A DNA stretch of 64,000 nt, taken from contig CAZRVD010000001.1 in assembly GCA_964603545.1 (NCBI GenBank), positions 68,358 through 132,357 on the forward strand, read 5' to 3'. The stretch is from an uncultured Candidatus Saccharibacteria bacterium. GTDB taxonomy: Bacteria; Patescibacteriota; Minisyncoccia; Phycocordibacterales; DATDWN01. The notes beneath the pieces were generated by a model. It saw only the letters and a program-made list of their open reading frames with translations, did no database searches and was not told the DNA's origin. Below, one piece after another: positions 28,588 through 49,599 of the stretch. The position numbers were made by a program, and so were the translations under genes. Each line of letters starts with the position of its first letter. Position 1 is the first letter of the stretch.

Positions 28588-28623
28588 TTACAACCGTGCG
28601 AAGCCCAGAGTGGTCGCATGACC
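28588..28623 (+). promoter_or_regulatory. 33-nt conserved leader motif (family 3) overlapping the start codon of 28618
   Basis: AACCGTGCGAAGCCCAGAGTGGTCGCATGACCA. The ATG of the downstream gene sits in the TGGTC-GCAT-GACCA mini-hairpin. Confidence 0.5.
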
Positions 28624-29025
28624 AAACTTATGTTAACAATTATTTTAAGTGCAGTTGCGATATTTGCTTTCGGAGCTTTTTGGTTTACTGTTTTGTTTGG
28701 ACAGACTTGGGCAAAACTTATGGACTTTAACCCTGCAGGGGACGATGTTGCTAGGCAAATGGGGATGGGTAAGCCCTTAGTTCAGAATTTTATATCAAAT
28801 CTTGTTATCGCAACAGTTTTTTACTACATGATTCCACAGTTATTGGTTTCTTCATATTTAAGTCTAGCAAAGGTCCTGTTTATAGTTTGGTTAGCCTTTA
28901 GTTTGCCTATTTTTGCCAATGCCGCTATTTGGGAGAGAAAAAGCTGGAAGCTAGTTTTGATTAACTCTGCTCAGAGTCTTATCTCTCTGGCTATAGTTTC
29001 AAGTATTGTCTACTATATGCAGTAG
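28618..29025 (+). CDS. 4-TM membrane protein (DUF1761-like)
   Basis: 135 aa, four hydrophobic helices. Confidence 0.4.
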   Translation: MTKLMLTIILSAVAIFAFGAFWFTVLFGQTWAKLMDFNPAGDDVARQMGMGKPLVQNFISNLVIATVFYYMIPQLLVSSYLSLAKVLFIVWLAFSLPIFANAAIWERKSWKLVLINSAQSLISLAIVSSIVYYMQ

Positions 29026-29304
29026 TCAAACTGGGTGTTAGTAGTATGTGGATAACTTCATTGACTTTTGTTGACAAAAAATACCTATTGACATATACTC
29101 CTCTTTAGCTTCAATGATTGAGTTTCGGCAGGGGCAAGATAGAATCTAGGGTTGTTTTGAGTTTTTTACAGGGTTTAATAGTTTCATGACTATTTTGCAG
29201 TTCAATCGCTAACAGTTTAAAAGTTTTTAATAGCTATCCTCAGACAGGATGGCTGGTTTTGTTTGTAATTATTAAAGTTTCCGGGGTTAATTTTAATATT
29301 TTTT

Positions 29305-32300
29305 ATGCAAAAATTAAGAAGTGCTCGGCCACAGAAGTTTTTTAGTCGCTATAAAAAACCTCTATTGCCATCACCTAACTTTGTTGAATCCCAACTAGAC
29401 TCTTTCAAGATGTTAATTGAAAAGGGTCTCAAAGAGGTATTCGAAGAGTTTTCTTCTATTAAAGATTTTTCAGGAAAGAAGTTCACTCTGGACTTCACTG
29501 GTTTTGAGCTATCTGAGCCAAAATACGATGAGTATTATGCAAAGGACAACAAGCTTTCATACGAAGCACCACTTAAGGCAAAAGTTAGACTAAAAAACCA
29601 TATACTTGGGACAGAGAAAGAGCAGGAGATTTTCATGGCGGATTTTCCACTTATGACTTCTCACGGTACTTTTATTATCTCTGGGATCGAAAGAATCATT
29701 GTTCCGCAACTAGCAAGATCTTATGGAGTTTTCTTTACCGCTACAGAAATAAAAGGACGAAAGTTTTTTGGTGCAAAAATCATTCCATCTCGTGGAGCGT
29801 GGGTAGAAATAGAATCTGACAGCGAGGGTGTAATTTCAGTTAGAATAGATAGAAAGAGAAAGTTTGCCGGTACAACCCTGCTTCGGGTTCTTGGGGTAAA
29901 GGATGATGAGGCGATCAAAAAGCTTTTTAAGGATGATGCTTTTGCTACAGCTTCAATTGAAAAGACTCTACTTAAGGATCACACAAAGACTCCAGAGGAA
30001 GCATATATAGATATACACAAAAGACTACGAGATGGGGACTTGGCTACAGCCGAGAATGCCAAGGAATTCGTGGATTCTATTTTCGACTCCGAAAGATACG
30101 ACCTTTCTCCAGTTGGACGACACAGATTTAACAAAAGATTTGGTCTGAGCATGGACGACAAGGAACTTAAGAGAAAAACTGTATCTGTCTCTGACTTAGT
30201 AACTATTATTTCTCACGTAGCGATGTTAAACAACACTCCAAACGCTGCGGAGGATGACATTGATCACTTAGGATCAAGACGAGTTAGATTTGTTGGTGAA
30301 CTCTTTCAGCAAAACATCAGAAAGGGTATTGCACAAATAAAAAGAAATATTCAGAACAAAATGTCTACAATTGAGACAGATGTTACACTTCCAGTACAGT
30401 TTGTTGCTCCTAGACCATTACAAGCAAGAATAAAAGAATTTTTCACAACCAACCAACTTTCACAGTTCATGCTTCAGGAAAACCCCGTTGCGGAAATTGA
30501 GCACCTTCGAACCCTGTCTGCATTGGGTCCAGGAGGACTAAACAGAACTCGAGCGGGATTTGAAGTTCGTGACGTTCACACATCTCATTATGGAAGAATT
30601 TGTCCGATTCACACACCAGAAGGTCCAAACATCGGACTAGTTCTTCGTCTTGCCATTTATGCAAGAATAAATAGTTTTGGAATGATTGAAACTCCATACG
30701 CAAAAGTTAAACACGGAAAAGTTACAGACGAAATAGTTTATATGAATGCTTCTGAGGAAGAGGGTTATGCTATTGCACACGCAGCTACACCAGTAGATGA
30801 AAATGGAAAAATATTAGCTGATGAAGTTGAGGTTCGTATAGAAGGTAACCCAGCGACTGCTTCAAAAGACAAAGTTGATTTTATTGATGTTGCAACAAAC
30901 CAAGCATTCTCCATCGCAACTTCTATGATTCCTTTCCTAAACCACAATGAAGCAAGTAGAGCACTGATGGCATCAAACATGCAGAAACAAGCTACACCTT
31001 GTATTATTCCTGAAGTTCCCCTTGTGGCTACAGGCATGGAAGCAGATGGTATAAAAGACGCTGGTAGACTACTTTTTGCAGATGAAGAAGGAACAGTAAC
31101 GCATGCAGATGGAAATAAAATTGTTATAAAAAATAATAAAGGAAAGGAAGTTGAACACAATTTAGTAAAATTCTCTAGAACAAATGGCTTTACTTCTTTC
31201 CATCAGAGACCATCAGTAGATGTTGGAGACAAGGTAAAGAAGGGACAAATTCTAGCTGACACTTCTTCTAGTAAAGATGGACAGGCAGCGATTGGTCAAA
31301 ACATGCTGGTCGCTTTTATGTCATGGAGTGGTAGTAACTACGAAGATGCAATTATTCTTTCCGAAAGAGTTATAAAAGATAGTAAATTTACATCTATTCA
31401 TATAGATGAGTTTGTAGTTAATGTGCGAGATACAAAACTTGGTCCTGAAATCACCACTTGTGACATTCCAAACGTTGGTGAGGCAAAACTAAAGAACTTG
31501 GCAGAAGACGGAATCGTACGTGTTGGTGCAGAAGTAAGACCTGGAGATATTTTGGTTGGTAAAATTACTCCAAAAGGAGAAACACAACTTACTCCAGAAG
31601 AGAGATTACTTAGATCACTTTTCGGCGAGAAAGCTCACGATATCAAAGATACTTCAAAGAGAATGGAAGGAGGTAAAAGAGGAAGAGTGGTTAAGGTTCA
31701 AGTATTTAGTAGAGAGAAAGGTGACAAACTTGATTCTGGAATTATAAAAAGAATTCACATTGAAGTAGCACAGCTTAGAAACGTTTCTGTTGGAGACAAA
31801 CTTGCAGGACGACACGGAAATAAAGGAGTTATTTCTAGAATTCTTCCAGAAGAAGATATGCCATATATGGCTGACGGTACTCCAATTGACGTTATTCTTA
31901 CACCACTTGGTGTGCCATCACGTATGAACCTGGGTCAGATTCTTGAGCTCCACCTAGGCTTAGCGGCAAATACACTTGGTTATCAAGCTATCGTCCCACC
32001 ATTTGCAGGAGCAACTGGAGAAGAAATTAAAGAAGAGCTTGTGAAGGCAGGATTTTCTCCAACAGGAAAAATGAAACTGTTTGACGGTAGGACAGGGGAA
32101 GCTTTTGCTCAGGATGTTGCCGTTGGATATATGTATATTATGAAGCTCCATCATATGGTAGAGGACAAGATTCACATGCGATCTATCGGTCCATACTCTC
32201 TTATTACTCAGCAACCACTTGGAGGAAAGGCTCAAAACGGAGGCCAGAGATTTGGAGAAATGGAAGTGTGGGCACTTTTGGGTCATGGAGCAGCTCATAC

Positions 32301-32508
32301 TCTGCAAGAAATTCTAACTATCAAGTCAGACGATATTGTCGGACGCTCTGCTGCTTTTGATGCAATTGTGAAAGGTCTTCCAATCACACAGTTAAACATT
32401 CCAGCATCATTTAATGTGCTATTAAATAATTTAAGAGGATTAGCATTAGATGTTCAGATAAAAAGAGGGTCGAAAGAATTATTAGATGGTCACAAACAAA
32501 TCGTTTAG
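29305..32508 (+). CDS. rpoB: DNA-directed RNA polymerase beta subunit
   Basis: 1067 aa. Conserved RpoB blocks (GRHGNKGVISRILP, MNLGQILELHLG). ~280-nt leader with a triple TTGAC promoter region. Confidence 0.95.
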   Translation: MQKLRSARPQKFFSRYKKPLLPSPNFVESQLDSFKMLIEKGLKEVFEEFSSIKDFSGKKFTLDFTGFELSEPKYDEYYAKDNKLSYEAPLKAKVRLKNHILGTEKEQEIFMADFPLMTSHGTFIISGIERIIVPQLARSYGVFFTATEIKGRKFFGAKIIPSRGAWVEIESDSEGVISVRIDRKRKFAGTTLLRVLGVKDDEAIKKLFKDDAFATASIEKTLLKDHTKTPEEAYIDIHKRLRDGDLATAENAKEFVDSIFDSERYDLSPVGRHRFNKRFGLSMDDKELKRKTVSVSDLVTIISHVAMLNNTPNAAEDDIDHLGSRRVRFVGELFQQNIRKGIAQIKRNIQNKMSTIETDVTLPVQFVAPRPLQARIKEFFTTNQLSQFMLQENPVAEIEHLRTLSALGPGGLNRTRAGFEVRDVHTSHYGRICPIHTPEGPNIGLVLRLAIYARINSFGMIETPYAKVKHGKVTDEIVYMNASEEEGYAIAHAATPVDENGKILADEVEVRIEGNPATASKDKVDFIDVATNQAFSIATSMIPFLNHNEASRALMASNMQKQATPCIIPEVPLVATGMEADGIKDAGRLLFADEEGTVTHADGNKIVIKNNKGKEVEHNLVKFSRTNGFTSFHQRPSVDVGDKVKKGQILADTSSSKDGQAAIGQNMLVAFMSWSGSNYEDAIILSERVIKDSKFTSIHIDEFVVNVRDTKLGPEITTCDIPNVGEAKLKNLAEDGIVRVGAEVRPGDILVGKITPKGETQLTPEERLLRSLFGEKAHDIKDTSKRMEGGKRGRVVKVQVFSREKGDKLDSGIIKRIHIEVAQLRNVSVGDKLAGRHGNKGVISRILPEEDMPYMADGTPIDVILTPLGVPSRMNLGQILELHLGLAANTLGYQAIVPPFAGATGEEIKEELVKAGFSPTGKMKLFDGRTGEAFAQDVAVGYMYIMKLHHMVEDKIHMRSIGPYSLITQQPLGGKAQNGGQRFGEMEVWALLGHGAAHTLQEILTIKSDDIVGRSAAFDAIVKGLPITQLNIPASFNVLLNNLRGLALDVQIKRGSKELLDGHKQIV

Positions 32509-32542
32509 TAACCGTGCAAAGCCGAGCAATGGTCGCATGACC
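32508..32542 (+). promoter_or_regulatory. family-3 motif filling the rpoB-rpoC spacer and overlapping the rpoC ATG
   Basis: TAACCGTGCAAAGCCGAGCAATGGTCGCATGACCACC. Confidence 0.5.
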
Positions 32543-35500
32543 ACCAATAAAAATTATATGAAAAATAGAATAAACACAGACGCAAACGATTTCGAAACAA
32601 TAGCTCTAAAAATTGCTTCTCCTGAAAGAATAAAGGAGTGGTCATTTGGTGAAGTTACGAAACCAGAAACAATAAACTACAGAACACAGAGATCTGAAAA
32701 AAACGGTTTGTTTGATGAAAAGATTTTCGGTCCAGATAAAGATCATGAATGTTATTGTGGAAAATACAGAGGTATTAGATACAAAGGTATTATTTGTGAA
32801 AAATGTGGAGTTGAAATCACTCGTTCAATCGTTAGAAGAGAGAGAATGGGCCACATCGAGCTAGCAACTGTCGTTTCTCACATTTGGTTTTTGAAATCAA
32901 TGCCAAGTAGAATTTCTCTTGTTCTCGGTATTCCAGTAGCTGATATAGAGAAGGTTATATACTTTGCCGGATACATAATTACAAAAGTTTCTGAGGAAGA
33001 TAGGACAAGATATCTAAAGGATTTAGATTCTGAATATAAATCAAAAATAAAATCTCTTCAGGATGAAAAAACAAAAGAGAAGTTGAAAGAAATGTTACTT
33101 AATGCCAAGCGAGATATTGATTCTATCCAAGAAGGCAAGGTTTTGGATGAAGTAGAATACTACAACTTTGGAATGAAGTACGGAACAATGTTTGAGGCAA
33201 GTATAGGAGCAGAAGCGATTTACAACATTTTCAAAAAACTAGATCTAAACAAACTGCTTGAGCAACTACACGTTGAGCTTGAAAAAGCTGGTTCACTTGA
33301 GGTAGGAAAAGTTAATAAAAGAATTGGGGTGGTTAGCTCAATGATAAACTCAAACATCAGACCTGAGTGGATGTTTCTTACACATATTCCAATTATTCCT
33401 CCAGCACTGCGTCCTATGGTTCCATTAGACGGAGGAAGATACGCAACTTCTGATGTAAACGATTTGTATCGAAGAGTTATAAACAGAAATAATCGTCTAA
33501 AGAAACTAAAAGAAATTAGTGCTCCTGACGTTATTTTGCGAAATGAAAAAAGAATTCTACAAGAGGCAGTGGATGCACTTATAGATAACTCTATCAGACA
33601 TGGTTCAGCAACAAGTGCTTTAAATCAATCCCAGAGAAGAGCTTTGAAGTCTCTGGCGGACAATCTAAAAGGCAAGAGAGGAATTTTTCGACAGAATCTT
33701 CTTGGTAAAAGAGTAGACTACTCTGGACGATCTGTTATCGTTGTCGGTCCTGATCTTCACTTAAATCAATGTGGTCTTCCAAAACACATGGCTCTGGAGC
33801 TTTTCAAACCGTTTGTAATTTCACAGCTTCTAAAAAGTGAATTGGCTTACAACATAAAAGGGGCAAGCAAACTTATTGATGATGGTATTCCTGAAGTGTG
33901 GGCAATTTTAGAAGAAGTTATTTCTGACAGATTTGTTCTTCTAAACCGTGCACCAACTCTTCACAGACTTGGTATTCAAGCTTTCAAACCTATATTGATT
34001 GAAGGTAATGCTATTCAGGTACATCCACTCGTTTGTTCTGCTTTCAACGCGGACTTCGACGGTGACCAAATGGCAGTTCACGTACCACTTTCTGACGAAG
34101 CACAACTTGAAGCACGGGAGATAATGGCGTCTGACAAAAATATTCTAAAACCAGGATCTGGCGACCCAACTGTGTCCGCAAAAATGCTAGATATCACACT
34201 TGGTTGTTATTGGATGACAAAAGGAATAGATGGAGAGATGGGTGAAGGAAAGTTTTTCTCATCTCCAAACGCGGCCATTACCGCGTATGACCTTGGCGCA
34301 GTTTCTTTCAGAGCGAAAATAAAAGTTCTTCCATCTGATACAGAAAAGTACTCACAGTTTGGAGGAAAATTATTTGAAACAACAGTTGGAAGACTTTTGT
34401 TTAACTCCGTTCTGCCAAAAGATTACGCATTTATTAACAACGAATTTGATAGAAAGAAAATATCTGCACTAGTGGATGATCTTATAGAAAAATATGGTAT
34501 TGAAAATGTTCCTGTTATTATCGACAAGATAAAAACATTCGGTTTCAAATATGCTACTTACTCTGGCGTTACATGGGGACTAGATGACGTGGCTATTCCA
34601 GAAGGTAAGAAAGCTATTATTCTAAAATCAAAAGAGAAGTCTGATTCTATTGTCGGTCACTTTAACGCAGGACTTATTTCAAAGGAAGAAAGACTAAGAC
34701 AGACGATTGAGATTTGGCAGGGTGCAAAAATGGAAGTTGAAAAACTAATGCCTGGTGCACTTCCTAAAAACGGCTCAGTTCTTGACATGGTACTTTCTGG
34801 AACTAGAGGTTCTATGTCAAACATCACCCAGATGGCAGGTATGAAGGGTCTTATTGCAAACAACGCCGGAGAGACTATTGAATTTCCGATTATATCTTGT
34901 TCAAAAGAGGGTCTTACCCCGCTTGAATACTTTATTACTACTCACGGCGCTAGAAAGGGTTTGACTGACACTGCTCTGAACACTGCGAAATCTGGATATC
35001 TAACGAGAAAAATGTTCGTTGTAGCACAGGATACTATAATTGTAGAAGAGGATTGCGGTACAAAAGAAGGTGTTGTTATCGACAAGTTTGCTATTTCTGG
35101 AATCGAAACTCCAATTGCAAAACACGTTAAGGGTAGATTTTTGTCAGAGGATGTCTCCACTCCTGACGGAAAGGTTCTCTTTAAAAAAGATCACTTGGTA
35201 AGCAAGGCAGATGCACAAGCTATAGAAGCAAGCGGTGTTACAAAAGTGTGGGTACGGTCACCGCTGTCATGTAAAACTCCAAACGGTATCTGTATAAAAT
35301 GTTACGGAACTGATCTTGGTAAAAACAAGGTGGTTGAACTTGGTGAAGCAGTAGGAACAGTTGCAGGACAAGCTATTGGTGAGCCAGGAACACAGCTTAC
35401 TATGAACACAAAACATGCGGGAGCGGCTTCAGTTTCTGGAGACATTGTTCAAGGTTTGCCTCGTGTTGAAGAGTTGTTTGAAAAAAGAAAACCGAAGAAT

Positions 35501-36232
35501 CCTGCTGTTGTCTGTTCTGTTTCTGGAACTATTTCAGAGGTTAAGGTTACTGATAAGGAAAAAATTATCACCATCACCCCTGACCTAGAAGATAGAAAGA
35601 AATCAAAAGACAGAATAGACTACTCAACATCTCTAAACAGAACGATATTAGTAAAAGTGGGGGATGAAGTTAAAAAGGGTGACATAATCACAGACGGTTC
35701 AGCAGACATAGATGAACTTTTCAAATATGCTGGTAAAGATAAAACTGTTGACTATATTATTCACGAAATTAACAAACCATACGAACTTCAAGGGGAAAAT
35801 GTTTCCAGAAAACACATTGAAACTATTGTCAGGCAAATGTTCTCTAGAAAGAGAATTAAAACTACAGGAGATACTTACTTTGTAGCCGGGGACATTGTAG
35901 AAGCAAATCTTCTTACAGAGGAAAATGCAAAAATGAAAACTGAAGGAAAGGAAGAGGCAAAAGCAGAGCCAGTCGTGATGGGTATCACAGATGTGTCACT
36001 TTCAAGACATAGTTTCCTTTCAGCGGCTTCATTCCAACACACAACACGAATCCTTATCTCAAGTGCCATAAGAGGTAATGCAGATAAACTAGCTGGTCTT
36101 ATGGAAAACGTTATCTTAGGAAAACTTATCCCAGCGGGTACTGGTTTTAAGGGAAGTAGCAAGGCGGAGATGATAGCTAAGATGCGAGCAGAGAGACCTG
36201 TAGTATTCGACGAGAGCACTCGCTACCAGTAA
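32537..36232 (+). CDS. rpoC: DNA-directed RNA polymerase beta-prime subunit
   Basis: Zn-binding CYCGKYRG...CEKCGVEI. Catalytic NADFDGD. The ATG at 32537 matches RpoC N-termini; the track ORF starts at 32486. Confidence 0.95.
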   Translation: MTTNKNYMKNRINTDANDFETIALKIASPERIKEWSFGEVTKPETINYRTQRSEKNGLFDEKIFGPDKDHECYCGKYRGIRYKGIICEKCGVEITRSIVRRERMGHIELATVVSHIWFLKSMPSRISLVLGIPVADIEKVIYFAGYIITKVSEEDRTRYLKDLDSEYKSKIKSLQDEKTKEKLKEMLLNAKRDIDSIQEGKVLDEVEYYNFGMKYGTMFEASIGAEAIYNIFKKLDLNKLLEQLHVELEKAGSLEVGKVNKRIGVVSSMINSNIRPEWMFLTHIPIIPPALRPMVPLDGGRYATSDVNDLYRRVINRNNRLKKLKEISAPDVILRNEKRILQEAVDALIDNSIRHGSATSALNQSQRRALKSLADNLKGKRGIFRQNLLGKRVDYSGRSVIVVGPDLHLNQCGLPKHMALELFKPFVISQLLKSELAYNIKGASKLIDDGIPEVWAILEEVISDRFVLLNRAPTLHRLGIQAFKPILIEGNAIQVHPLVCSAFNADFDGDQMAVHVPLSDEAQLEAREIMASDKNILKPGSGDPTVSAKMLDITLGCYWMTKGIDGEMGEGKFFSSPNAAITAYDLGAVSFRAKIKVLPSDTEKYSQFGGKLFETTVGRLLFNSVLPKDYAFINNEFDRKKISALVDDLIEKYGIENVPVIIDKIKTFGFKYATYSGVTWGLDDVAIPEGKKAIILKSKEKSDSIVGHFNAGLISKEERLRQTIEIWQGAKMEVEKLMPGALPKNGSVLDMVLSGTRGSMSNITQMAGMKGLIANNAGETIEFPIISCSKEGLTPLEYFITTHGARKGLTDTALNTAKSGYLTRKMFVVAQDTIIVEEDCGTKEGVVIDKFAISGIETPIAKHVKGRFLSEDVSTPDGKVLFKKDHLVSKADAQAIEASGVTKVWVRSPLSCKTPNGICIKCYGTDLGKNKVVELGEAVGTVAGQAIGEPGTQLTMNTKHAGAASVSGDIVQGLPRVEELFEKRKPKNPAVVCSVSGTISEVKVTDKEKIITITPDLEDRKKSKDRIDYSTSLNRTILVKVGDEVKKGDIITDGSADIDELFKYAGKDKTVDYIIHEINKPYELQGENVSRKHIETIVRQMFSRKRIKTTGDTYFVAGDIVEANLLTEENAKMKTEGKEEAKAEPVVMGITDVSLSRHSFLSAASFQHTTRILISSAIRGNADKLAGLMENVILGKLIPAGTGFKGSSKAEMIAKMRAERPVVFDESTRYQ

Positions 36233-36237
36233 AAGTT

Positions 36238-36347
36238 TCCAAATTTGGCCAATTTCTTTGTCAGAGTTCAAAAAATAATTCTCACCGTACTAGTTGTACG
36301 ACTCGAATTATTTTTATCCTCTTTCGCGAAATTGTCTCAAATTTGAA
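36238..36347 (+). repeat. long-hairpin repeat family 1, copy 3 (after rpoC)
   Basis: Terminal CAAATTTGG / CAAATTTG. Apical helix is CGTAC-tagtt-GTACG (compensatory relative to CCTTAC/GTAAGG). Confidence 0.65.
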
Positions 36348-36392
36348 AATTTTACGAGAATTCTGATGATAAAGTTTTAAACTCAAAACTAA

Positions 36393-39490: not shown

Positions 39491-39504
39491 GCTCGGGTCT
39501 TTTT

Positions 39505-39595
39505 ACTCAATCTCATCTTCTAAAATTTGAAAATAATCATCACCTTACTACTTGTAAGGCTCTTCATATTTTAAAATTTTATAAGCGACCTTGAG
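39505..39595 (+). repeat. long-hairpin repeat family 1, copy 4 (after rpoD)
   Basis: Its own terminal helix GCTCgGGTC / GACCttGAGC. Shared core TCTAAAATTTGAAAATAATCATCACCTTACTACTTGTAAGGCTCTTCATATTTTAAAATTTTATAAGCGACC. Confidence 0.65.
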
Positions 39596-39626
39596 CAAAA
39601 ATCCTCCAAGTTTCATAGCTTCATTA

Positions 39627-39704
39627 AATACAAGAACACTCTCAATTGAGAGTGTTCTTGTATTGACAAAAGGAAATAATTATGCTAGTGTCTTGCGCAG
39701 GAGG
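39627..39704 (+). promoter_or_regulatory. 32-bp perfect palindrome abutting a TTGACA promoter (cassette G)
   Basis: ACAAGAACACTCTC-AATT-GAGAGTGTTCTTGT at 39627-39658, then TTGACA(39662-67)-N17-TAGTGT, then AGGAGG at 39699-704. Confidence 0.5.
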
Positions 39705-39742
39705 GGATTTTCCCCTTGCATTAGACCAGAAAGGTTACTACG

Positions 39743-40408
39743 TTGAAAACACTCCGTATTGTCATGGCGATGACTCTGTTCTCTCTCACTTCCTTCGCTT
39801 CGGCGACGGCGCAGGACGGAGGATACAAGGTTTCGGCGATTTCTGTCGGTTCGGGGGAAACCCCGATCTCCGGCGGGATCTCCGCTTCAGTCGATCTGAC
39901 GACCGAAAGTGGCGGATTCATGCAGGTCATGGTTCAATCTGAGCAGGCTTGGTTCATGATTGGCAAGGACTGGAAGTTCTCTCGCTCCCGTTGCAGTTTC
40001 TACGGTTCAGTGGGGCATTTCCAGTCGGCGCCGTGGGTGGGTCCGTACGCGGGTTGTACCCTTGTTCTGGCCAACCTTGGTGGGCAGGAGGTTTCTATCA
40101 GTGCTCTGACTTGGCCCGGCTTTTACATCGGTTGGGAGCCGAAGAACTGGCGCACAGCCGAGGATGGGGTGGAGAATCCGGAGTCCTTGAAGGCTGGGTA
40201 TTTCTCGGTTGCCTCGCTCAATCTCGGGAGGGTTTCGGTGAGCATCGCTCATTTGAACTTTTTGGACGACAAGACCAACATCCTTCCGGGCGTCGCATAC
40301 ACCCAGAAGGTGCGTAGTGACATGGATGTCAGCGGGAGTTTCACTTGGAACTCCAACTCTGACTCCCCGATGTTCTTCGTTGGTGCATCATGGCATCCGA
40401 AGAAGTAG
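39743..40408 (+). CDS. secreted beta-rich protein (possible beta-barrel or adhesin-like), high-GC cassette G, TTG start
   Basis: Signal peptide KTLRIVMAMTLFSLTSFASATAQD, then alternating-hydrophobic beta-strand-like sequence. GC well above the backbone. Only TTG is in frame upstream, after GAAAGG. Confidence 0.45.
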   Translation: MKTLRIVMAMTLFSLTSFASATAQDGGYKVSAISVGSGETPISGGISASVDLTTESGGFMQVMVQSEQAWFMIGKDWKFSRSRCSFYGSVGHFQSAPWVGPYAGCTLVLANLGGQEVSISALTWPGFYIGWEPKNWRTAEDGVENPESLKAGYFSVASLNLGRVSVSIAHLNFLDDKTNILPGVAYTQKVRSDMDVSGSFTWNSNSDSPMFFVGASWHPKK

Positions 40409-40427
40409 AGCGACTAGCTTCGTGTAC

Positions 40428-40470
40428 GGCAGGACACCCGAGTGGGGGTCCTGCCGGCGCGGAGTTTTTT
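40428..40470 (+). terminator. rho-independent terminator of cassette G
   Basis: GGCAGGAC-acccgagtgggg-GTCCTGCC ggcgcggagTTTTTT. Confidence 0.6.
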
Positions 40471-40549
40471 GATACCTGAAATTATCCACAAGGGGTTTAA
40501 AAAATCTTCATGTTAGTATTGATACGGAAAGTCTGAGAGGGGAGGTGAC

Positions 40550-40753
40550 ATGGAGAAGTGTCCGGATTGTGAGGGTCCTGTCGGTGTGCTCATGAACTAT
40601 TATATTTGTAGGGGTCAGTGTGACGGCAAACTTTTGTTGCACACTGATCCAGATGAAAACAGGAAGGAGATGAGAAGGAGAGGGGCTCTTCTTCAAGTTA
40701 GCCACACGGATGAGGACGTAGTACACTTCGTCAGTCGAACACCCAAAGTCTAG
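40550..40753 (+). CDS. small zinc-ribbon-like protein, high-GC cassette H
   Basis: CPDCEG...CRGQC (CxxC-N16-CxxxC). RBS GGGGAGGTGA. 67 aa. Confidence 0.4.
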   Translation: MEKCPDCEGPVGVLMNYYICRGQCDGKLLLHTDPDENRKEMRRRGALLQVSHTDEDVVHFVSRTPKV

Positions 40754-40798
40754 TCTTGTCATGGTGGAGTCGTTTTGTGACTCCACCCGCAAGGCCTG

Positions 40799-40831
40799 CC
40801 CCGTAGTAGAGATACTCTACCGGGGTTTTTT
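40799..40831 (+). terminator. terminator of cassette H
   Basis: CCCCGTAGTAGAG-atac-TCTACCGGGG TTTTTTCG. Preceded by a second hairpin GGTGGAGTC-gttttgt-GACTCCACC at 40763-40787. Confidence 0.55.
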
Positions 40832-40853
40832 CGTATTAAAAAGTATATGAGAA

Positions 40854-40877
40854 GGCCCCGGGGTTGATTCCGGGGCC
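40854..40877 (-). terminator. terminator of the minus-strand coiled-coil gene
   Basis: GGCCCCGG-ggttgatt-CCGGGGCC, followed on the minus strand by TTCTCATATACTTTTTAAT. Confidence 0.5.
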
Positions 40878-40905
40878 TGGTATTCGATGTCGCAACTTGC
40901 GCTTC

Positions 40906-41542
40906 CTACTTCTTCTTCGTCAGGAGCGCACGAAGCGCGTCAGCTTTGCTCTTGCGCGCGGCCATCAGGACCGCGCGCTGTTCGGTTCCGGAGGGTCGAG
41001 GCGTGGCGACCACCACGGCGGGGTTTGCGACCTTCGCCTTGTTCGCGACTTCTCGCTGAACCCGACGTACCTGGTCGCGCTTCTTCTGCTCGACTTCGGC
41101 CTCGTCGACTGCGTTCGCCAGTGCGTTGTAGGCGTTGATGCGAAGTTCGAATGTGCCGTTCAGTTCTGCGCTGACTGCGCTGACGAGCTCAGCCTGGAGC
41201 TTCTGGAGGCGTTCGATGAGGTCCTTGTCGTAGCCCTCCTCGTCGCGCAGGCGGTTGATGATCTTGGTGAAGCGTGCCGTCTGCACCTGGTTGCCCTCGA
41301 GTGGCTTGTCGGTGACCGAGTAGCGCAGGAAGGCTCGGAGCTTGCCGTGTTCCGGTCGACACGATATCGGCCCCGATGACGATCGCCTTCTCGTTCTCGC
41401 CTTCCTCGATGGCGTCCGCCATCGCCAGGATGTAGCTGTCGATGGGGTTGCCGATCTGGAAATCGCGCGTCTTGCTCATCGCGCCCATGATTTCCGCGAC
41501 CGCTTCCTGAGACTGTTCGAAGGTCATTGTCGTCTTGGCCAT
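40906..41542 (-). pseudogene. GC-rich alpha-helical/coiled-coil protein gene interrupted by a frameshift near 41330-41360 (cassette I)
   Basis: ORF 41189..41542 is protein-like for about 62 aa (MAKTTMTFEQSQEAVAEIMGAMSKTRDFQIG...AIVIGADIVS) and then becomes P/R/G-rich junk. The +1 frame continues protein-like (EHGKLRAFLRYSVTDKPLEGNQVQTARFTKIINRL...) into ORF 40906..41286. The plus-strand ORF 40864..41379 is an antisense artefact. Confidence 0.5.
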
Positions 41543-41609
41543 ATCGGACTCCGTTCTATGAAGGTACTGCTTTTCTGAGGGCGAAATGCCGTTCAGATCT
41601 AACTAGACG

Positions 41610-41638
41610 TAGTGTAGCATGCTATGCAAAAAATGTCA
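41610..41638 (-). promoter_or_regulatory. promoter of cassette I (minus: TTGACA-N17-TACACT, with TAGCATGCTA palindrome in the spacer)
   Basis: The reverse complement reads TTGACAttttttgcatagcatgcTACACT...GGAGtccgatATG. Confidence 0.5.
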
Positions 41639-41677
41639 ATAGATTAAACATACACTAAAAAATGCTATTCTATAACC

Positions 41678-44611: not shown

Positions 44612-44612
44612 G

Positions 44613-45314
44613 TTATTCGAAGAGAAGAGCATCTATGACACGCTTTAGGTTTTCGTAAGGTTGTGCGCCTTGAACAACTGTTTTTGTTCCATCTCTTGAA
44701 ACAATTATAGAGTTTGGTGTGCCTCTTCCTCCGGCCTTAACAGCGTCTTGGTAGTCTACTTCTACTTTGGTTGCGTATTTACCACTAGATAGACATTCGT
44801 TGAATGCAGTTACATTAAGTCCGACATCTTTTGCGATTTTTGGAAGCTCTGCTGGATCTAGAGAGTCGTTTGAATTTGTTCTTGTGTAGATAGTGTTTAG
44901 GTATTCCCAGAATTTTGTAGGTCCACCAAGTTCGTTTGCACATTCTGTCGCTTCCGCTTCCTTACGAGCCTTTGGATGGAGTTGGTCTATAGGGAAGTGT
45001 CTGTAAACCCAAGCCACTTTTCCATTTTTGCCATACTCATCCATCATGCGTCTTAGCGTTGTGTGGAATTGTTTACAGTAAGGGCATTCTGTATCAGAGT
45101 ATTCAACTAGTATAAGTTTTGCATCTGGGTTTCCCAAAATATGATCCTGTGCTGTTATTGGTCTCATTTCTTCACCAGCAGTAGTTTCTGTCCCTGTTGT
45201 TTTGACTTTAGCTAACTCCTGTCCGTTTTTAAGGTTTGAATAATAAAATGCTCCAGCTATTAAGGCTCCTGCGATAACTATTGCTATCGGTACAGATAAT
45301 TTTTCTATATTCAT
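44613..45314 (-). CDS. DsbA-family thiol:disulfide oxidoreductase (membrane-anchored)
   Basis: N-terminal TM. Thioredoxin active site ECPYCKQF. Confidence 0.75.
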   Translation of the reverse strand: MNIEKLSVPIAIVIAGALIAGAFYYSNLKNGQELAKVKTTGTETTAGEEMRPITAQDHILGNPDAKLILVEYSDTECPYCKQFHTTLRRMMDEYGKNGKVAWVYRHFPIDQLHPKARKEAEATECANELGGPTKFWEYLNTIYTRTNSNDSLDPAELPKIAKDVGLNVTAFNECLSSGKYATKVEVDYQDAVKAGGRGTPNSIIVSRDGTKTVVQGAQPYENLKRVIDALLFE

Positions 45315-45384
45315 ATGTGACCATTCTACTAGGGAATAAATTTATATGCAATTGGACTTTTTTAGAATCGTGTTATTATGATAA

Positions 45385-45519
45385 CGGATGCATGTGCATC
45401 TCCGGGAAAGGAGGGTATCGCATGAGGTAGTCGCCATTCTCCTGGGGGAGTATACTTTCGCACTGGGAAGAGGAGGGGTTCTATGACACCACCCTCCTCA
45501 ACCCGGTTTTTCTTTTATT
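45385..45519 (+). ncRNA. candidate ~135-nt GC-rich small RNA with its own promoter and intrinsic terminator
   Basis: TTGGAC(45352-57)-N16-TATTAT(45374-79) promoter. Terminator GAGGAGGG-gttctatgacacca-CCCTCCTC aacccggTTTTTCTTTTATTT at 45468-45519. No ORF longer than 10 codons with an RBS inside. Not matched to a known RNA family. Confidence 0.35.
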
Positions 45520-45570
45520 TGAAAACTAGTATAATTAAAAAGGATCGAGGGCGGTCCAGAAAGGAGTGTA

Positions 45571-45612
45571 ATGGCTATGAAGGCAAAGAAGGCTGCGAAG
45601 AAGACCGCCTAG
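45571..45612 (+). CDS. tiny Lys/Ala-rich ORF (13 aa, MAMKAKKAAKKTA) with strong SD and terminator
   Basis: TATAAT at 45529-34, AAAGGAG at 45559-65, ATG at 45571, TAG at 45610-12, then the hairpin terminator at 45650-45674. Confidence 0.25.
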   Translation: MAMKAKKAAKKTA

Positions 45613-45649
45613 AAGCGGTAGGTTGCGATCTTCGCGACTGCACTATCCA

Positions 45650-45674
45650 GGGGGCACCGTGTGCCCCCTTTTTT
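45650..45674. terminator. bidirectional hairpin terminator
   Basis: GGGGGCAC-cgt-GTGCCCCC TTTTTT. Confidence 0.6.
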
Positions 45675-45678
45675 ATAT

Positions 45679-46260
45679 CTAAAAAAGACTTTGAGTTTTT
45701 ATTTCAGGAACTGGCTCCCAATGTTTAGTTTCCAACTTTATTTCTTTTGTAAAAGGTCCTTCTTTGAACATCAGCTTCTTATTTTTCATAGCAAATTCAA
45801 AAACATCTTTGGTTATTTTTACATCGTCTAAACAATACTTGCGTATTTTTTCTATCTCTCCTGACCTCCACCAAGCTACGGCTTCTAGTCCGTTACCACT
45901 TTTACTTAATCCAAAAGTTCCTTGGGCTATTTGTTCTAGTTTCATTCTACGACCGTAGGCTTGGCGGATTTCTTTTAGTAGGTCTAGTGAAAGTGTTTGT
46001 GTAAGGTCACCGTGTCCAGCTTTTTTATAGTATTTATTTAATAGGGGAATATCAAAGTGGTCGCCGTTAAAAGTGACAAGCATTTCCGCTTTTTTAAAGT
46101 AAGGCCACATTTTTTCAAATTCTTCTTCTAAAAAACTTTCATACTTGCCGGTTTCGTAGTCAAAAAGCCCAACTAGAGAAATATCTAAATCTACTGGGTC
46201 ATTAGATCCCACATCTTGAAATATGTTTTTTGTTTCAATATCAAAAACTACTTTTCTCAT
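45679..46260 (-). CDS. RNase H-like 3'-5' exonuclease (DEDDy, PolB-exonuclease-domain-like)
   Basis: Exo I FDIET, Exo II FNGDHFDIPLL, Exo III YCLDDV. Confidence 0.65.
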   Translation of the reverse strand: MRKVVFDIETKNIFQDVGSNDPVDLDISLVGLFDYETGKYESFLEEEFEKMWPYFKKAEMLVTFNGDHFDIPLLNKYYKKAGHGDLTQTLSLDLLKEIRQAYGRRMKLEQIAQGTFGLSKSGNGLEAVAWWRSGEIEKIRKYCLDDVKITKDVFEFAMKNKKLMFKEGPFTKEIKLETKHWEPVPEIKTQSLF

Positions 46261-46326
46261 AAAATTCAGTATAACAGGTATTCCACGTTCGTAAAATATT
46301 AATTAATTTTAAGACATTGCGCAGGA

Positions 46327-46465
46327 AATTAGAAAACAACGACGAGCGAAAAGAAGCCTGAAGCACTGTCTGAGGGTAATCCCGAGTTTGCGAGAAGGCT
46401 CTGGAGTGAGGAAGATTGTTTTCTTGATTTCCGAGCAAAGCAAAATCAAAGCTTTGATTTATGCG
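46327..46465. repeat. intergenic repeat family 2, copy B (3' of hisS)
   Basis: Aligns with 5764-5899 across ~135 bp (AACGACGAG...CGAGTTTGCGAGAAGGCT...TTTTCTTGATTTCCGAGCAAAG...TTTATGCG). Confidence 0.6.
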
Positions 46466-46475
46466 GGTCTTAAAA

Positions 46476-47756
46476 TTAATTAAGATTTGAAGCTATCTCT
46501 TCCAATTTCACTTTCTTTTCTTCACCACTTTCCATATTTTTTAGGTTATATACACCAGATTTTACTTCATCTTCACCAACACAGATAACAAAAGGAATTT
46601 TCTGTTTATTGGCAAGTTTCAATTGATCACTAAGTTTTTTGTCTGTGAGGTCAACTGCAGTATTTACGCCAAACTCTCTCATTTTTCCCGCCAGAGTTTC
46701 TGCTTCATTTTTAAACTCACTACTTACGGTACAAATATAGACTTGCGTTTTAGGTTTATAAATAGGAAGTAGGTTGTGTTTCTCTAGAAAATCCTGAGCA
46801 GTGACGTCTCCTGCGCCGAAACCAACAGAAGGAACTTTTTTTACTCCAAAAATATTCATAAGGTCATCGTACCTGCCACCGCCAAAAACAGAGCGAGTAT
46901 TCTCTGGGTCTGTATCAAAAACCTCAAAAACCATACCAGTGTAATAATCAAAACCACGTACTAGGGTTGGGTCAAAAGTTACATTTTTGACACCAAGGTT
47001 TAAGAGTTTCTCTATAGTAGAGATCATTTCTTTTGTCACTTCACTTTCACCTAGAAAATCCAAAAGTTTATCATGTGATTCAAGTAATGAGGTAAATTCA
47101 ATAGCTTTATCTCCTAAAAGTTCTCCGAAAGCTTCTTGAAACCCGGATTTTGAGATTTTATCTTTTTTGTCTATTACTTTTGAAGCCTTGTTTGACTTCT
47201 CTTCATCTAAACCAAATTTTTCATAAAGTTTCTTTATGATTCTTCTGTCATTTATTCGAATAATAAAATCTTCGTCCTTTGCACCAAAATTTTTCATTAT
47301 TTGGTAGGCGATGTTTACAATTTCTATATCTGCTAGGCTAGAATCTACTCCAAACAAGTCAACGTTGAGTTGCCAGTGCTCGCGCAGTCTGCCTCTTTGG
47401 GGTTTCTCGTATCTAAAAAGGTTTGGGATGGAATACCAGCGAAGTGGAAAAGCAAGTTCCTTTTCTTTTCCTGCTACCATTCTAGCCACAGTTGGCGTCA
47501 TCTCTGGACGAAGAGTAACTTCGCGGTCACCACGGTCTGTAAAAGTATAAGTTTGTTCGCTTACTATTTCTTCACCAGATTTTGCTTTGTATAGTTCTGC
47601 CGATTCTAGTATAGAAGCCGAATATTCTTCGTATCCGAATTTTTCAACGGTGTCTTTCCAGGTTTGGAATATGTAGTTTTGTATAAAAAGTTCTTCGGGG
47701 TAGAAGTCGCGCACGCCTTTGTAGCTTTCTGTACTTAACTTTGATTTGTCTGTCAT
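46476..47756 (-). CDS. hisS: histidyl-tRNA synthetase
   Basis: Class II motif 2 FRYEKPQRGRLREHWQ. HisRS-specific GGGRYD. Anticodon-binding C-terminus. The ATG at 47756 (MTDKSKL) is the likely start; the track ORF extends to 47837. Confidence 0.85.
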   Translation of the reverse strand: MTDKSKLSTESYKGVRDFYPEELFIQNYIFQTWKDTVEKFGYEEYSASILESAELYKAKSGEEIVSEQTYTFTDRGDREVTLRPEMTPTVARMVAGKEKELAFPLRWYSIPNLFRYEKPQRGRLREHWQLNVDLFGVDSSLADIEIVNIAYQIMKNFGAKDEDFIIRINDRRIIKKLYEKFGLDEEKSNKASKVIDKKDKISKSGFQEAFGELLGDKAIEFTSLLESHDKLLDFLGESEVTKEMISTIEKLLNLGVKNVTFDPTLVRGFDYYTGMVFEVFDTDPENTRSVFGGGRYDDLMNIFGVKKVPSVGFGAGDVTAQDFLEKHNLLPIYKPKTQVYICTVSSEFKNEAETLAGKMREFGVNTAVDLTDKKLSDQLKLANKQKIPFVICVGEDEVKSGVYNLKNMESGEEKKVKLEEIASNLN

Positions 47757-47776
47757 ATGGGTTATTGTATCAGAAT

Positions 47777-48535
47777 ATGGAAGCTTCACAAGAAAAGGAT
47801 GTGTATGTTGTATATAAAAATCTGGGCGAGACTCCACTTGAATGTATACAAAGATTTAAAAAAAATAAGCCGGAATTTGGAAGTTCTAGCGTGACCTATG
47901 CAGGAAGGCTGGACCCCATGGCAGAGGGGCTACTTATTTTACTTACAAACGAAAAAGTAAACGAGAAGGAGAAATATTTGGATTTACCAAAAACGTATGA
48001 ATTTGAGGTTCTGTGGGGCTTTGAAACGGATACACTAGATATATTAGGAAAAATTTCAAATTCAAAATTTCAAATTTCAAAACAGGAAGAGGTTGAAGAT
48101 TATTTAAAAAAAACGGTTGGAAAATTTGAACAAAAATATCCAGATTATTCGTCAAAGCCAGTGCAAGGCAAACCTTTGTTTCAGTGGGCTAGGGAAGATA
48201 GACTTTCAGAAATAGACATTCCAAAACACGAGGTTGAAGTTTTTGAAGCGAAGTATATTTCTAGAAGGATTATTTCAAAAGAGGATTTGCTTAATGACAT
48301 TGATTTTAAAATAGGAAAAGTAAGGGGAGACTTTAGACAGAAGGAAATACTTGAGAAGTGGAAAGAAGTTTTGAGTGGAACGAGTGAGGAAAACTTTGTA
48401 ATTGATAAATTAGAATTAAAAGTTTCTAGTGGTTTCTATGTTAGGCAATTTGTTTCTGATATGGCAGAGGACTTAGGGATGCTTGCAACTACTTTTCATA
48501 TAAAGAGGACAAAGATTGGTGATTGCGAAATTTAA
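47777..48535 (+). CDS. truB: TruB-family tRNA pseudouridine synthase (divergent)
   Basis: Catalytic Asp context YAGRLDPMAEGLLILLT (compare GTLDPLATGLL). Confidence 0.6.
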   Translation: MEASQEKDVYVVYKNLGETPLECIQRFKKNKPEFGSSSVTYAGRLDPMAEGLLILLTNEKVNEKEKYLDLPKTYEFEVLWGFETDTLDILGKISNSKFQISKQEEVEDYLKKTVGKFEQKYPDYSSKPVQGKPLFQWAREDRLSEIDIPKHEVEVFEAKYISRRIISKEDLLNDIDFKIGKVRGDFRQKEILEKWKEVLSGTSEENFVIDKLELKVSSGFYVRQFVSDMAEDLGMLATTFHIKRTKIGDCEI

Positions 48536-48652
48536 AATGAAAGAAATACACAGTTTTGATTGTAATAGGCGTTTACAGACTATTTCTTATGTGATTAGAT
48601 ATTATAGGAGGATCCTCGTTTCAATTTGAGGGTCTCTAGGGAGTGTGATTTG

Positions 48653-49003
48653 ATGCCGGCTGAGGACACACGGAAATCTGAAGCGTTGGTGGCGATTGGG
48701 CAAACCCTGGTCACCGCCCGTCGACGTTCGGGTCTGAGTTTGACTCAACTCGTTCGTTCAACCCGTAACCCGCGCCTTTCAGGTGTGGGTGACAAGTTCG
48801 TTCTCGCTGAGAAGGGGACGTTTGAGGGCAAGGAAGACCTGCTTCGGGAAATCATTCAGGCTTACCACCTGAACACTTCCGAGGACGTGGAGGTGGAACG
48901 CTGTCTGGCCGTCACGTTCCCGAAGACGGATGCCAACTCTCGCAGAAGTGGTGTTCCCGGCCATCCAAGGCCTTCACTCGGAGGGTACAGACCCTCGGCG
49001 TAG
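48653..49003 (+). CDS. XRE-family HTH regulator, high-GC cassette K1
   Basis: AIGQTLVTARRRSGLSLTQLV is a helix-turn-helix. ATG at 48653 after GGGAGTGTGA. GC-rich. The C-terminal ~30 aa are low confidence. Confidence 0.45.
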   Translation: MPAEDTRKSEALVAIGQTLVTARRRSGLSLTQLVRSTRNPRLSGVGDKFVLAEKGTFEGKEDLLREIIQAYHLNTSEDVEVERCLAVTFPKTDANSRRSGVPGHPRPSLGGYRPSA

Positions 49004-49023
49004 AAAAAGCACACAACAGGGGC

Positions 49024-49058
49024 CGGTCGCGCATGCGCGACCGAGCTCTTTTTCTTAT
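49024..49058 (+). terminator. terminator after K1
   Basis: CGGTCGCGC-at-GCGCGACCG agctcTTTTTCTT. Confidence 0.55.
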
Positions 49059-49061
49059 GGT

Positions 49062-49128
49062 CATGCGACCATTCTGGGTTGCGCACGGTTGCGGTCATAC
49101 GACCACTGCTCGCTTTCAGCGGTTGCAT
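49062..49128 (-). repeat. two adjacent TGGTCGYATGACC-core sites (family 3 copy plus 33-bp direct-repeat copy 1), minus strand
   Basis: The minus strand reads CGCTGAAAGCGAGCAGTGGTCGTATGACC-GC-AACCGTGCGCAACCCAGAATGGTCGCATGACCA. Confidence 0.6.
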
Positions 49129-49172
49129 AAAGTTTAAGTAAGTGTAGATTGATATTTAGGGAGGCAGACAGG

Positions 49173-49499
49173 ATGCTGAGCGGAGTCCAGCTGAACGAGG
49201 TAGTGAAGGATGTCAAGATATTTCGGATGAAGAGAGGACTGGAGAGAAAAGACCTGGCCTTGGAGGCTCAGGTTGGAGTTAGGTTTGTCCGAAACGTGGA
49301 AGAAGAGAGAAGGCTCAAGTGGAGGCTTCCACTAGTGCAGAAGCTTCTGCGGGTTCTGGTGGCACTGGATCTCAAACTTCATGAAGAGGCCATCAAAAAG
49401 AAAGTCAGCCAAGTTGCTCATTCACCTCGCAAGAAGAGGCGTTGCAGATTCGACCGGCGTCGTGGCGGAGTTGTTCTGAATCGGCGCTGTCGCAGGTAA
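49173..49499 (+). CDS. XRE-family HTH regulator, high-GC cassette K2
   Basis: MKRGLERKDLALEAQVGVRFVRNVEE is a helix-turn-helix. ATG at 49173 after GGGAGG. Basic Arg-rich tail. Confidence 0.5.
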   Translation: MLSGVQLNEVVKDVKIFRMKRGLERKDLALEAQVGVRFVRNVEEERRLKWRLPLVQKLLRVLVALDLKLHEEAIKKKVSQVAHSPRKKRRCRFDRRRGGVVLNRRCRR

Positions 49500-49518
49500 G
49501 TTCTTCGTTTTCGAAAAA

Positions 49519-49565
49519 GGCTCTGGGTGTGTGGCGTCACACACCCAGAGCCTTCGTTCGTTTTG
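49519..49565 (+). terminator. 15-bp perfect-stem terminator after K2
   Basis: GGCTCTGGGTGTGTG-gcg-tCACACACCCAGAGCC ttcgttcgTTTT. Confidence 0.65.
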
Positions 49566-49566
49566 G

Positions 49567-49599
49567 TCATACGACCTCTGCTCGCTTTCAGCGATTGTT
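49567..49599 (-). repeat. 33-bp direct-repeat copy 2 (31/33 identical to 49094-49126), abutting the typA stop codon
   Basis: GGTCATACGACCtCTGCTCGCTTTCAGCGaTTG versus GGTCATACGACCaCTGCTCGCTTTCAGCGgTTG. Confidence 0.6.

Follow-up and report, generated by a model that had tools for sequence, protein, structure and literature searches.

A previously undescribed multi-copy repeat of 34 or 35 nt is present as five full units and one 12-nt fragment in a stretch of the bacterial contig CAZRVD010000001.1, hereafter the window (the whole 64,000-nt stretch that was analysed). The five sites are members of a miniature interspersed repeat family of Parcubacteria/Paceibacteria-type bacteria of the candidate phyla radiation (CPR), and this family has no counterpart in Rfam or in the literature searched. 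The unit is gained and lost as a whole, inserts precisely and amplifies into head-to-tail arrays, and its turnover between relatives is rapid. It is probably a mobile interspersed repeat, and neither the attachment (att) site of a gene cassette nor an operator that hides the AUG of the next gene, which are the two roles that an earlier reading of the same DNA (the original prediction) had offered for it.

Copies in the window

The 13-mer TGGTCGYATGACC occurs four times in exact form, at 28611 and 32530 on the plus strand and at 49059 and 49093 on the minus strand, and a fifth site (49565-49577, minus strand) carries it with one mismatch, AGGTCGTATGACC; the number expected by chance is zero (100 shuffles). 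A profile of the five copies, searched against the 64 kb with nhmmer, recovers the same five at E values of 1e-8 to 1e-10 and nothing else below E = 3 (copies are numbered as in Table 1). The original prediction had located all five correctly. It had also described a conserved block running from the upstream stop codon to the ATG of the next gene. This is true of the upstream border of copy 2, which begins 0 nt after the rpoB stop codon (TAG 32506-32508), contributes with its own TAA a second in-frame stop and ends 15 nt from the probable rpoC start (ATG 32559). It is not true of copy 1, which starts 10 nt past the stop of a 181-aa gene (28035-28580) and adjoins or overlaps the start of a membrane protein gene matched by the DUF1761 profile.

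The other three copies lie between typA and truB. Copies 3 and 4 are arranged head-to-tail, copy 3 coming after the terminator of the first of two small GC-rich genes, which is encoded on the opposite strand. Copy 4 is identical to copies of other Parcubacteria (e.g. L022; contigs and loci are given by their L numbers) except for its last base, G instead of A. Copy 5 is in sense orientation with respect to typA and follows its stop codon (49598-49600) at a distance of 0 nt, and copies 4 and 5 form near-identical direct repeats (31/33) around the second small gene and its terminator; both arrangements are as originally described. A 9-mer that had been noted near 17797 is real as well and is part of a longer match of 12 nt. 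About 0.008 such matches would be expected by chance in the 128 kb of two strands (our own arithmetic), and the fragment probably represents a truncated unit.

In an independent assembly (Logan contig L001) the truB-typA region is 100% identical and shows the same arrangement, which is therefore not an assembly artefact. The window is low in GC (38.5%). To judge from its TypA, whose homologues at 87-93% identity come from sources named Zambryskibacteria, Parcubacteria, Minisyncoccia or Paceibacterota, the source of the window is a member of Parcubacteria/Paceibacteria.

Structure of the unit

The consensus of the unit, (C/T)AAC-CGCU-GAA-AGCG-AGCAG-UGGUC-GYAU-GACC(A/G), comprises two predicted mini-hairpins. 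The first (H1) has a 4-bp stem and a variable 3-nt loop, with one extra bulged base in the 35-nt type, and the second (H2) has a 5-bp stem, UGGUC-GYAU-GACCR, and is almost invariant; the two are joined by the linker AGCAG. Because the unit ends in either A or G, H2 is closed by a U-A or a U-G pair. The 5' tetranucleotide CAAC/TAAC is present in 61 of the 62 distinct sequences collected. Constraint acts on H1 in structure only, and on CAAC, the linker and H2 in sequence.

Pairing is maintained in 98.9% of the cells of H1 and H2. The inner H1 pair 8-12 is U-A in 16, C-G in 14 and U-G in one of the 31 distinct 34-nt sequences, and the two length types differ at the H1 pair 7-13, which is C-G in the 34-nt and G-C in the 35-nt type. 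A double change in H2, UAGUC/GACUA, is found once, in L211. The covariation score observed is equalled by no shuffle. Because G-U pairs (21) outnumber A-C pairs (7), the sense strand appears to be the folding strand. Helices of thermodynamically minimum free energy (ACCGCUG/CAGUGGU and, in the 35-nt type, CGUGCG/CGCAUG) were considered and rejected for want of covariation support, and 14 of the 31 sequences disrupt the alternative helix that is thermodynamically most favourable. The two-hairpin structure is thus supported by the sequences, though not proven, as the stems are short and the covariation comes from few independent events. The small hairpin of the original prediction, UGGUC-GYAU-GACCA, corresponds to H2 and is upheld by pairing and covariation.

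Distribution and novelty of the family

Genomes were scanned at one genome per species. The first pattern was loose, and most of its 119 matches were chance ones in high-GC genomes; the true matches were recovered by filtering with the five-copy profile, after which full-length matches remained in ten contigs. Nine of these are from metagenome-assembled genomes (MAGs) named as CPR (Zambryskibacteria, Parcubacteria, Paceibacterota and 'Saccharibacteria'), and the tenth, labelled or binned as Nitrospira, is low in GC (0.41). As 'Saccharibacteria' labels of MAGs may be crude, the family is claimed for Parcubacteria-type CPR only. A strict 21-nt pattern matched at least 120 metagenome contigs, mainly from groundwater, with Hainich and Rifle among the sites of origin, and gave zero matches in one scan of viral contigs. 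The collected set comprises 166 instances from 124 loci; judged by flanking sequence, 117 instances are unique.

Rfam holds no relevant family, either for the whole window at the gathering threshold, for the two motif regions at E values up to 10, or for seven loci carrying the repeat of about 200 nt that is described below. Full-text literature searches gave no match for the unit sequence, the peptide it encodes or CPR combined with terms for repetitive extragenic palindromes (REP) or miniature inverted-repeat transposable elements (MITE). The earlier statement that this is a multi-copy signal with no known counterpart is thus borne out.

Many contigs carry tandem arrays of two to eight identical units, head-to-tail with a period of 34 or 35 nt, some of them directly upstream of promoters, e.g. 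before rplJ in L213. In a 47%-GC CPR lineage, such arrays stand immediately 5' of promoters in a conserved frame (AAAGGGAGAAATAAAG, then the array, then CCATTTCGCGGGAGGT...TTGACA), which recurs at several loci (L213 5176-5448 and 14133-14269; L128, L163, L173, L189, L190, L209 and L219).

Precise insertion and turnover

Filled and empty sites can be compared directly within another repeat, of about 200 nt. Without the unit it reads ...CACAACCTCTA|TGCATG..., and with it ...CTCTA|34 nt|TGCATG..., a difference of exactly 34 nt, located between TA and TG. The insertion is precise and is accompanied by neither target-site duplication nor terminal inverted repeats. One copy of the 200-nt repeat holds the unit in reverse orientation at a different place.

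This host repeat is itself a multi-copy structured sequence of about 170-240 nt (...CACAACCTCTA...long hairpin...CCTCCGCCGGTTG...GGCAATAGAGGTTCAAACT..., often followed by a terminator), seen in L205 (8 copies), L158, L167, L135, L192, L197, L210, L216 and other CPR metagenome contigs. It matches no Rfam family, is absent from the window and carries the 34-nt unit in about half of its copies. The idea that the unit is the start of a conserved housekeeping non-coding RNA was rejected: the 200-nt sequence is multi-copy (up to 8 per 10 kb), many of its copies are without the unit, and the window has none.

Turnover is also seen between relatives of the window. Of those for which the rpoB region is available, L200 is the closest, with an RpoB C-terminus 97.5% identical and a nucleotide identity of 81% over 3.4 kb; its orthologous rpoB-rpoC copy is partly decayed, with unpaired changes in both hairpins. 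At the same junction, no copy is found in five relatives at 86-93% RpoB identity, whose spacer is simply AT-rich and measures about 15-45 nt. L153 was considered as a third rpoB-rpoC case and rejected, as no match to RpoB/RpoC was found. L200 further has an antisense array of four 35-nt units 51 nt upstream of rpoB, a place that is empty in the window, and is without a copy at the position of window copy 1, a region that is rearranged in L200. Across six related genomes, the typA-truB spacer holds 3, 2, 1, 0, 0 and 0 copies. As side observations on L200, positions 3880-4150, orthologous to about 29025 of the window, hold an additional GC-rich mini-cassette (a small gene in antisense, with GGAGG) that is missing from the window, so that two genomes with 81% DNA identity differ in their cassettes; the DUF1761 gene of L200 appears degraded.

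Copies inside genes

About 18 copies lie within long open reading frames (ORFs), MurG being among the affected proteins: 13 in sense orientation in the frame that reads QPLKASSGRMT, two in another sense frame (TTAESEQWSYDQ) and three antisense. Another 23 calls are antisense in short ORFs, for the most part within tandem arrays, and are regarded as spurious. The in-frame insert adds 11 aa, the peptide QPLKASSGRMT, to at least 10 different proteins; the hosts are PolA (L140, L154), UvrA, GyrB, PGK and DnaX, and the peptide is also found in a flavoprotein, at the UvrB C-terminus, in a ComEC-like protein and in RsmE. The sites of the unit in UvrA differ between L039 and L130, and this pair was rejected as a clean filled/empty comparison as the loops are too diverged for placement of the boundaries.

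The 11-aa insert in PolA of L140 and L154 is missing from nearly all of 120 CPR homologues, the exceptions being P0177, which has the insert, and P0121, whose corresponding loop contains a nested copy, partial and inverted. Filled and empty PolA differ by exactly 11 residues, and the net gain is thus 33 nt in ORFs versus 34 nt in non-coding DNA. The unit is tolerated in surface loops of proteins, and the versions that survive there are exclusively in-frame ones (+33 nt). The loop in question, which follows GTIVEQ in the 5'-3' exonuclease domain of PolA, also holds unrelated insertions in several CPR lineages, e.g. HPLRHSDTSPLAKGEAGRG (insertions or the nested unit in P0121, P0147, P0176, P0218 and P0221). 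It is an insertion-tolerant hot spot, in which further repeat families may be found.

Placement, orientation and a possible role in RNA

Placement was analysed for the 56 solitary copies that are intergenic and unique. Those between co-directional genes are mostly sense (20 versus 5 antisense), and within 60 nt of a gene end the sense:antisense ratio is 20:3 for the upstream gene and 17:2 for the downstream gene. Nine unique copies begin between -3 and +3 nt from the upstream stop codon; at -3 the TAA of the unit itself serves as the stop (L084, L236, L196). Thirteen copies end 4-17 nt ahead of the next start. The unit is tolerated directly after stop codons and in short operon spacers. In L057, a contig of a CPR MAG, the unit also stands in front of rpoC.

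Such a distribution raises the alternative of a functional cis-acting RNA module of operon mRNAs, kept because it is useful where Shine-Dalgarno sequences are lacking: the unit could be the site of an RNA-binding protein, a hairpin for 3'-end protection or processing, or a device that delivers ribosomes to the next cistron and keeps its translation going, a role proposed for mycobacterial interspersed repetitive units (MIRUs; PMC12548453). We regard this as unlikely. The sense bias, the location 0-3 nt after stops and shortly before starts and the G-U wobbles, which indicate folding of the transcribed strand, would all be expected of it, as would the copy kept between rpoB and rpoC in two related genomes. 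Native genes of the window are indeed without a Shine-Dalgarno sequence, and many show a TATAAT-like box only a few bases upstream of the ATG. For one copy, that of L198, the mini-ORF opened by the ATG of the unit ends in an ATGA overlap with the next start, and MIRUs are reported to insert at gene junctions and to have an internal ORF that is coupled (PMC12548453). However, a module serving operon mRNAs would not account for antisense copies, for arrays upstream of promoters (L213 rplJ, L200 rpoB) or for copies inside ORFs and inside other repeats. Moreover, closest relatives are without the unit at identical junctions, the rpoB-rpoC copy of L200 is decaying, and the frame of the mini-ORF and its distance to the downstream start are inconsistent between copies. 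A related idea, that insertion after stop codons protects a Shine-Dalgarno sequence, was rejected because the native genes have no such sequence.

The AUG within H2 had been proposed to be sequestered by the hairpin, which would make the unit a translational operator of the downstream gene. H2 is real and does contain an AUG, which in copies 1 and 2 shares the reading frame of the ORF that follows; even so, this role is very improbable. An ORF of at least 60 codons is opened by the ATG of the unit in only 24 of the 117 unique copies, about half of which are in-ORF copies. The rpoC of the closest relatives aligns or begins at the downstream ATG 32559, which is most likely the rpoC start, and a start at the second ATG would suit the DUF1761 profile, whose match begins at residue 7 of the longer ORF. 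The count and the rpoC alignment led to rejection of the ATG of the unit as a true start codon, and copies inside ORFs, in arrays upstream of promoters or in antisense orientation contradict sequestration as well.

The typA-truB spacer and GC-rich cassettes

According to the other original proposal, the direct repeats formed by copies 4 and 5 are att or target sites duplicated by site-specific insertion of a GC-rich helix-turn-helix (HTH) cassette. Their near-identity and the way they bracket the second small gene and its terminator would suit this, and so would L170, in which a small gene is bracketed likewise, one copy being degenerate. In other relatives, however, the genes are present without the sites. 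L241, the closest relative at this spacer (TypA 93% identical), has two small GC-rich genes and no unit copy, and one of the two shares 39% identity with the second small gene of the window and lacks flanking repeats; relatives that carry the gene but no such repeats had been named beforehand as the refuting observation, and L241 is a case of this kind. L243 and L244 likewise have small GC-rich genes in place and no unit, L242 has a single copy, which lies between the small genes, and L170 has two. The copy after typA is absent in L241-L244 and present in L170. Unlike att or attC sites, the units number 0, 1 or 2 per cassette-bearing relative, and other cassettes have none: a profile search finds no unit in the other GC-rich islands of the window, seven or more in number, and the extra GC-rich cassette of L200 has no flanking copies. 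Most copies elsewhere adjoin no cassette. The link of the unit to GC-rich cassettes is accordingly not sustained, and there is hardly any likelihood left for att sites.

Two small GC-rich genes between typA and truB (GC 0.46-0.58 versus 0.37-0.41 for the loci) are a conserved, fast-evolving feature of all relatives examined, and the window copies are independent insertions into intergenic DNA of a lineage in which these small genes were already in place. Neither small protein of the window matches an HTH family in Pfam, and the 'XRE' label given to them is accordingly unverified. The spacer itself is a conserved hot spot (48540-49600 in the window; L241, L242, L243, L244 and L170). The window and four of these relatives have two short GC-richer genes antisense to typA, one being on record for L243. 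Identity of the small genes is 39-44% between genomes with TypA about 90% identical, and their order appears shuffled.

A DNA uptake or genome-wide DNA signal, like the uptake sequences DUS/USS or Chi, accumulating by mutation and biased recombination, is scarcely credible, even though the unit is over-represented, lineage-specific and found inside genes in a preferred frame and CPR bacteria are thought to depend on DNA uptake, since the unit is gained as whole 34-nt insertions and not by point mutation and shows compensatory stem changes, tandem arrays and a strong orientation bias.

Proposed mechanism

As a mobile repeat, the unit would be selfish and non-autonomous, its movement depending on a trans-acting protein able to recognise the conserved CAAC, linker and H2 sequences on one folded strand. 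By analogy, movement might proceed through a single-stranded-DNA mechanism of HUH/Y1 type, like those of REP/RAYT or IS200/IS605, although we hold this suggestion only tentatively. These models are the closest because they likewise involve no target-site duplication and no inverted repeats. Single-stranded-DNA transposition would act on the non-template or the lagging-template strand. The only IS200-like gene in the loci is in L129 (Y1_Tnp, Pfam E 1e-27); it was considered as a partner and rejected, as its flanking CCACCGCC-TCYG-GCGGTGG hairpins, a single case, are unrelated to the unit. An E. coli RAYT query gave no tblastn match against the loci, which are represented by contig fragments.

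Several observations weigh against the mobile repeat, or against this way of moving it. First, no transposase or partner protein was identified in the loci examined. Second, stems of 4 and 5 bp are very short compared with known IS200/IS605 or REP hairpins. Third, no longer target motif (a conserved 4-5-mer) was found next to the unit in 85 copies; the base at -1 is a purine in 79 of these 85, and -2 is A/T. Fourth, the 34-nt unit is not frame-preserving, and the gain of 33 nt in ORFs demands an extra assumption, which might be selection for rare in-frame 33-nt events or a compensating 1-nt loss in flanking A-runs. Fifth, random insertion alone does not account for the sense and frame bias inside ORFs. 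Sixth, the near-identity of copies across distant genomes could indicate function rather than recent mobility. Finally, the three window copies in the typA-truB spacer are on the strand opposite to that which the GC skew predicts for insertion along the replication strand. Their orientation follows the neighbouring gene typA, which fits RNA-level selection or transcription coupling as well as, or better than, the classical lagging-strand model.

It is conceivable, though rather improbable, that the unit is the smallest structured mobile element yet described, moving between and within CPR genomes by an undescribed transcription-coupled mechanism that uses the exposed sense strand, and/or that it has been domesticated as an intercistronic RNA module, which might deliver ribosomes or protect mRNA ends where Shine-Dalgarno sequences are lacking. 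Transcription coupling or RNA domestication would explain the sense orientation, the adjacency to stop codons and the single preferred frame.

Other repeats and GC-rich islands of the window

Genes of the GC-rich islands (GC 0.50-0.58 versus 0.385) have strong GGAGG sites and GC-rich terminators of their own; examples are 48600-49600, 39691-41610, 25601-25960, 56861-57450 and 60721-61590. The largest of the islands encodes a secreted-looking protein of 221 aa (39743-40408), which matches no Pfam family and has a homologue of 69% DNA identity in L057 (136-724). The 3' end of a tRNA gene (60249-60320), 23 nt long (CCGCCGGAGCTTAGTAATCATTT), is repeated exactly 349 nt downstream, and the pair resembles the att sites of an element that has integrated there, or of what is left of one.

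A second repeat family of about 55-100 nt (TTCCAAATTTGGC...CACCTTACTACTTGTAAGGCT...) contains a CCTTAC/GTAAGG hairpin and has no Rfam match. Four of its five copies begin about 1-5 nt past the stop of a plus-strand gene, namely the ORFs ending at 11839 and 18153, rpoC (36232) and a sigma-factor-like gene (39490).

Table 1. Repeat copies and related features, in coordinates of the window.
Feature	Position	Strand	Description	Basis or context
Copy 1	28591..28624	+	34 nt, variant of 35-nt type, CAACCGTGCGAAGCCCAGAGTGGTCGCATGACCA	nhmmer E 8.6e-10
Copy 2	32509..32543	+	35-nt type, TAACCGTGCAAAGCCGAGCAATGGTCGCATGACCA	profile match
Copy 3	49058..49091	-	34 nt, variant of 35-nt type	profile match; inverted pair with copy 1, 91%
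Copy 4	49092..49125	-	34-nt type, CAACCGCTGAAAGCGAGCAGTGGTCGTATGACCG	profile match
Copy 5	49564..49597	-	34-nt type with two changes, CAATCGCTGAAAGCGAGCAGAGGTCGTATGACCA	profile match
Probable truncated copy	17798..17809	+	TAACCGTGCGTA, first 12 nt of 35-nt type	sequence match; below profile detection
tRNA 3'-end repeat pair	60249-60334 and 60661-60683			adjoins GC-rich island 60721-61590
Second repeat family copies	11844-11930, 18154-18240, 36237-36289, 39495-39593, 51401-51500			

Significance and comparison with known systems

CPR/Patescibacteria genomes are tiny and streamlined, and a selfish 34-nt repeat that still spreads in them is unexpected, particularly in essential genes (polA, uvrA, gyrB) and at the rpoB-rpoC junction. 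Annotation pipelines should be able to recognise the unit, since it interrupts or misleads gene prediction and lengthens proteins by 11 aa. Among close relatives it is a marker of recent genome change, and strains could be told apart by its variable tandem arrays. With CAAC, linker and H2 conserved and H1 kept in structure only, it offers a compact substrate for finding the protein that recognises it. Its orientation and frame biases make two ideas testable, transcription-coupled insertion and an RNA-level role in translation without Shine-Dalgarno sequences.

The unit misses at least one defining feature of each of the REP, Rickettsia palindromic element (RPE) and MIRU families. It resembles REP/REPIN-RAYT systems in its size of about 35 nt, in a hairpin with compensatory changes beside a conserved short single-stranded motif, in its hundreds of dispersed, mostly intergenic copies, often just 3' of stop codons, and in being non-autonomous without terminal inverted repeats or target-site duplication. 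However, the unit has two different mini-hairpins, whereas a REP is one longer palindrome, and its 5' motif is CAAC/TAAC instead of GTAG. It forms direct head-to-tail arrays (34/35 nt) and not inverted doublets, inverted neighbours being found in only two loci, L208 and L234. REPs are extragenic, whereas about 18 copies of the unit lie within long ORFs. Furthermore, REPs are mostly known from Proteobacteria, and the hosts of the unit are CPR.

Like RPEs, the unit is inserted in frame into unrelated housekeeping genes, adds a conserved peptide and occurs in hosts with reduced genomes. RPEs have been described as selfish repeats that lie in frame in housekeeping genes and also in intergenic DNA (PMC10969869). 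They differ from the unit in length (about 100-150 bp versus 33-35 nt, or 11 aa), are unrelated in sequence and belong to another phylum, and the tandem arrays of the unit are not an RPE feature.

MIRUs, which measure 46-101 bp, are similar in lying between operon genes in the direction of transcription with variable tandem copy number (2-8 in the unit). They touch the stop and start codons of their neighbours, appear mobile and have minimal effect on expression (PMC12548453). The MIRU has a coupled internal ORF, whereas the ORF from the ATG of the unit ends mostly uncoupled, with ATGA in L198 only, and the unit is defined by two hairpins and inserts inside ORFs too.

Finally, the IS200/IS605-derived palindrome-associated transposable elements (PATEs) resemble the unit in that they insert precisely, with no duplication and no terminal inverted repeats, have structure at both ends and are strand-specific. 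Known PATEs are at least about 100 nt long, with 8-10-bp hairpins and a defined 4-5-nt target, whereas the stems of the unit are 4-5 bp and its target signal is only a purine at -1.

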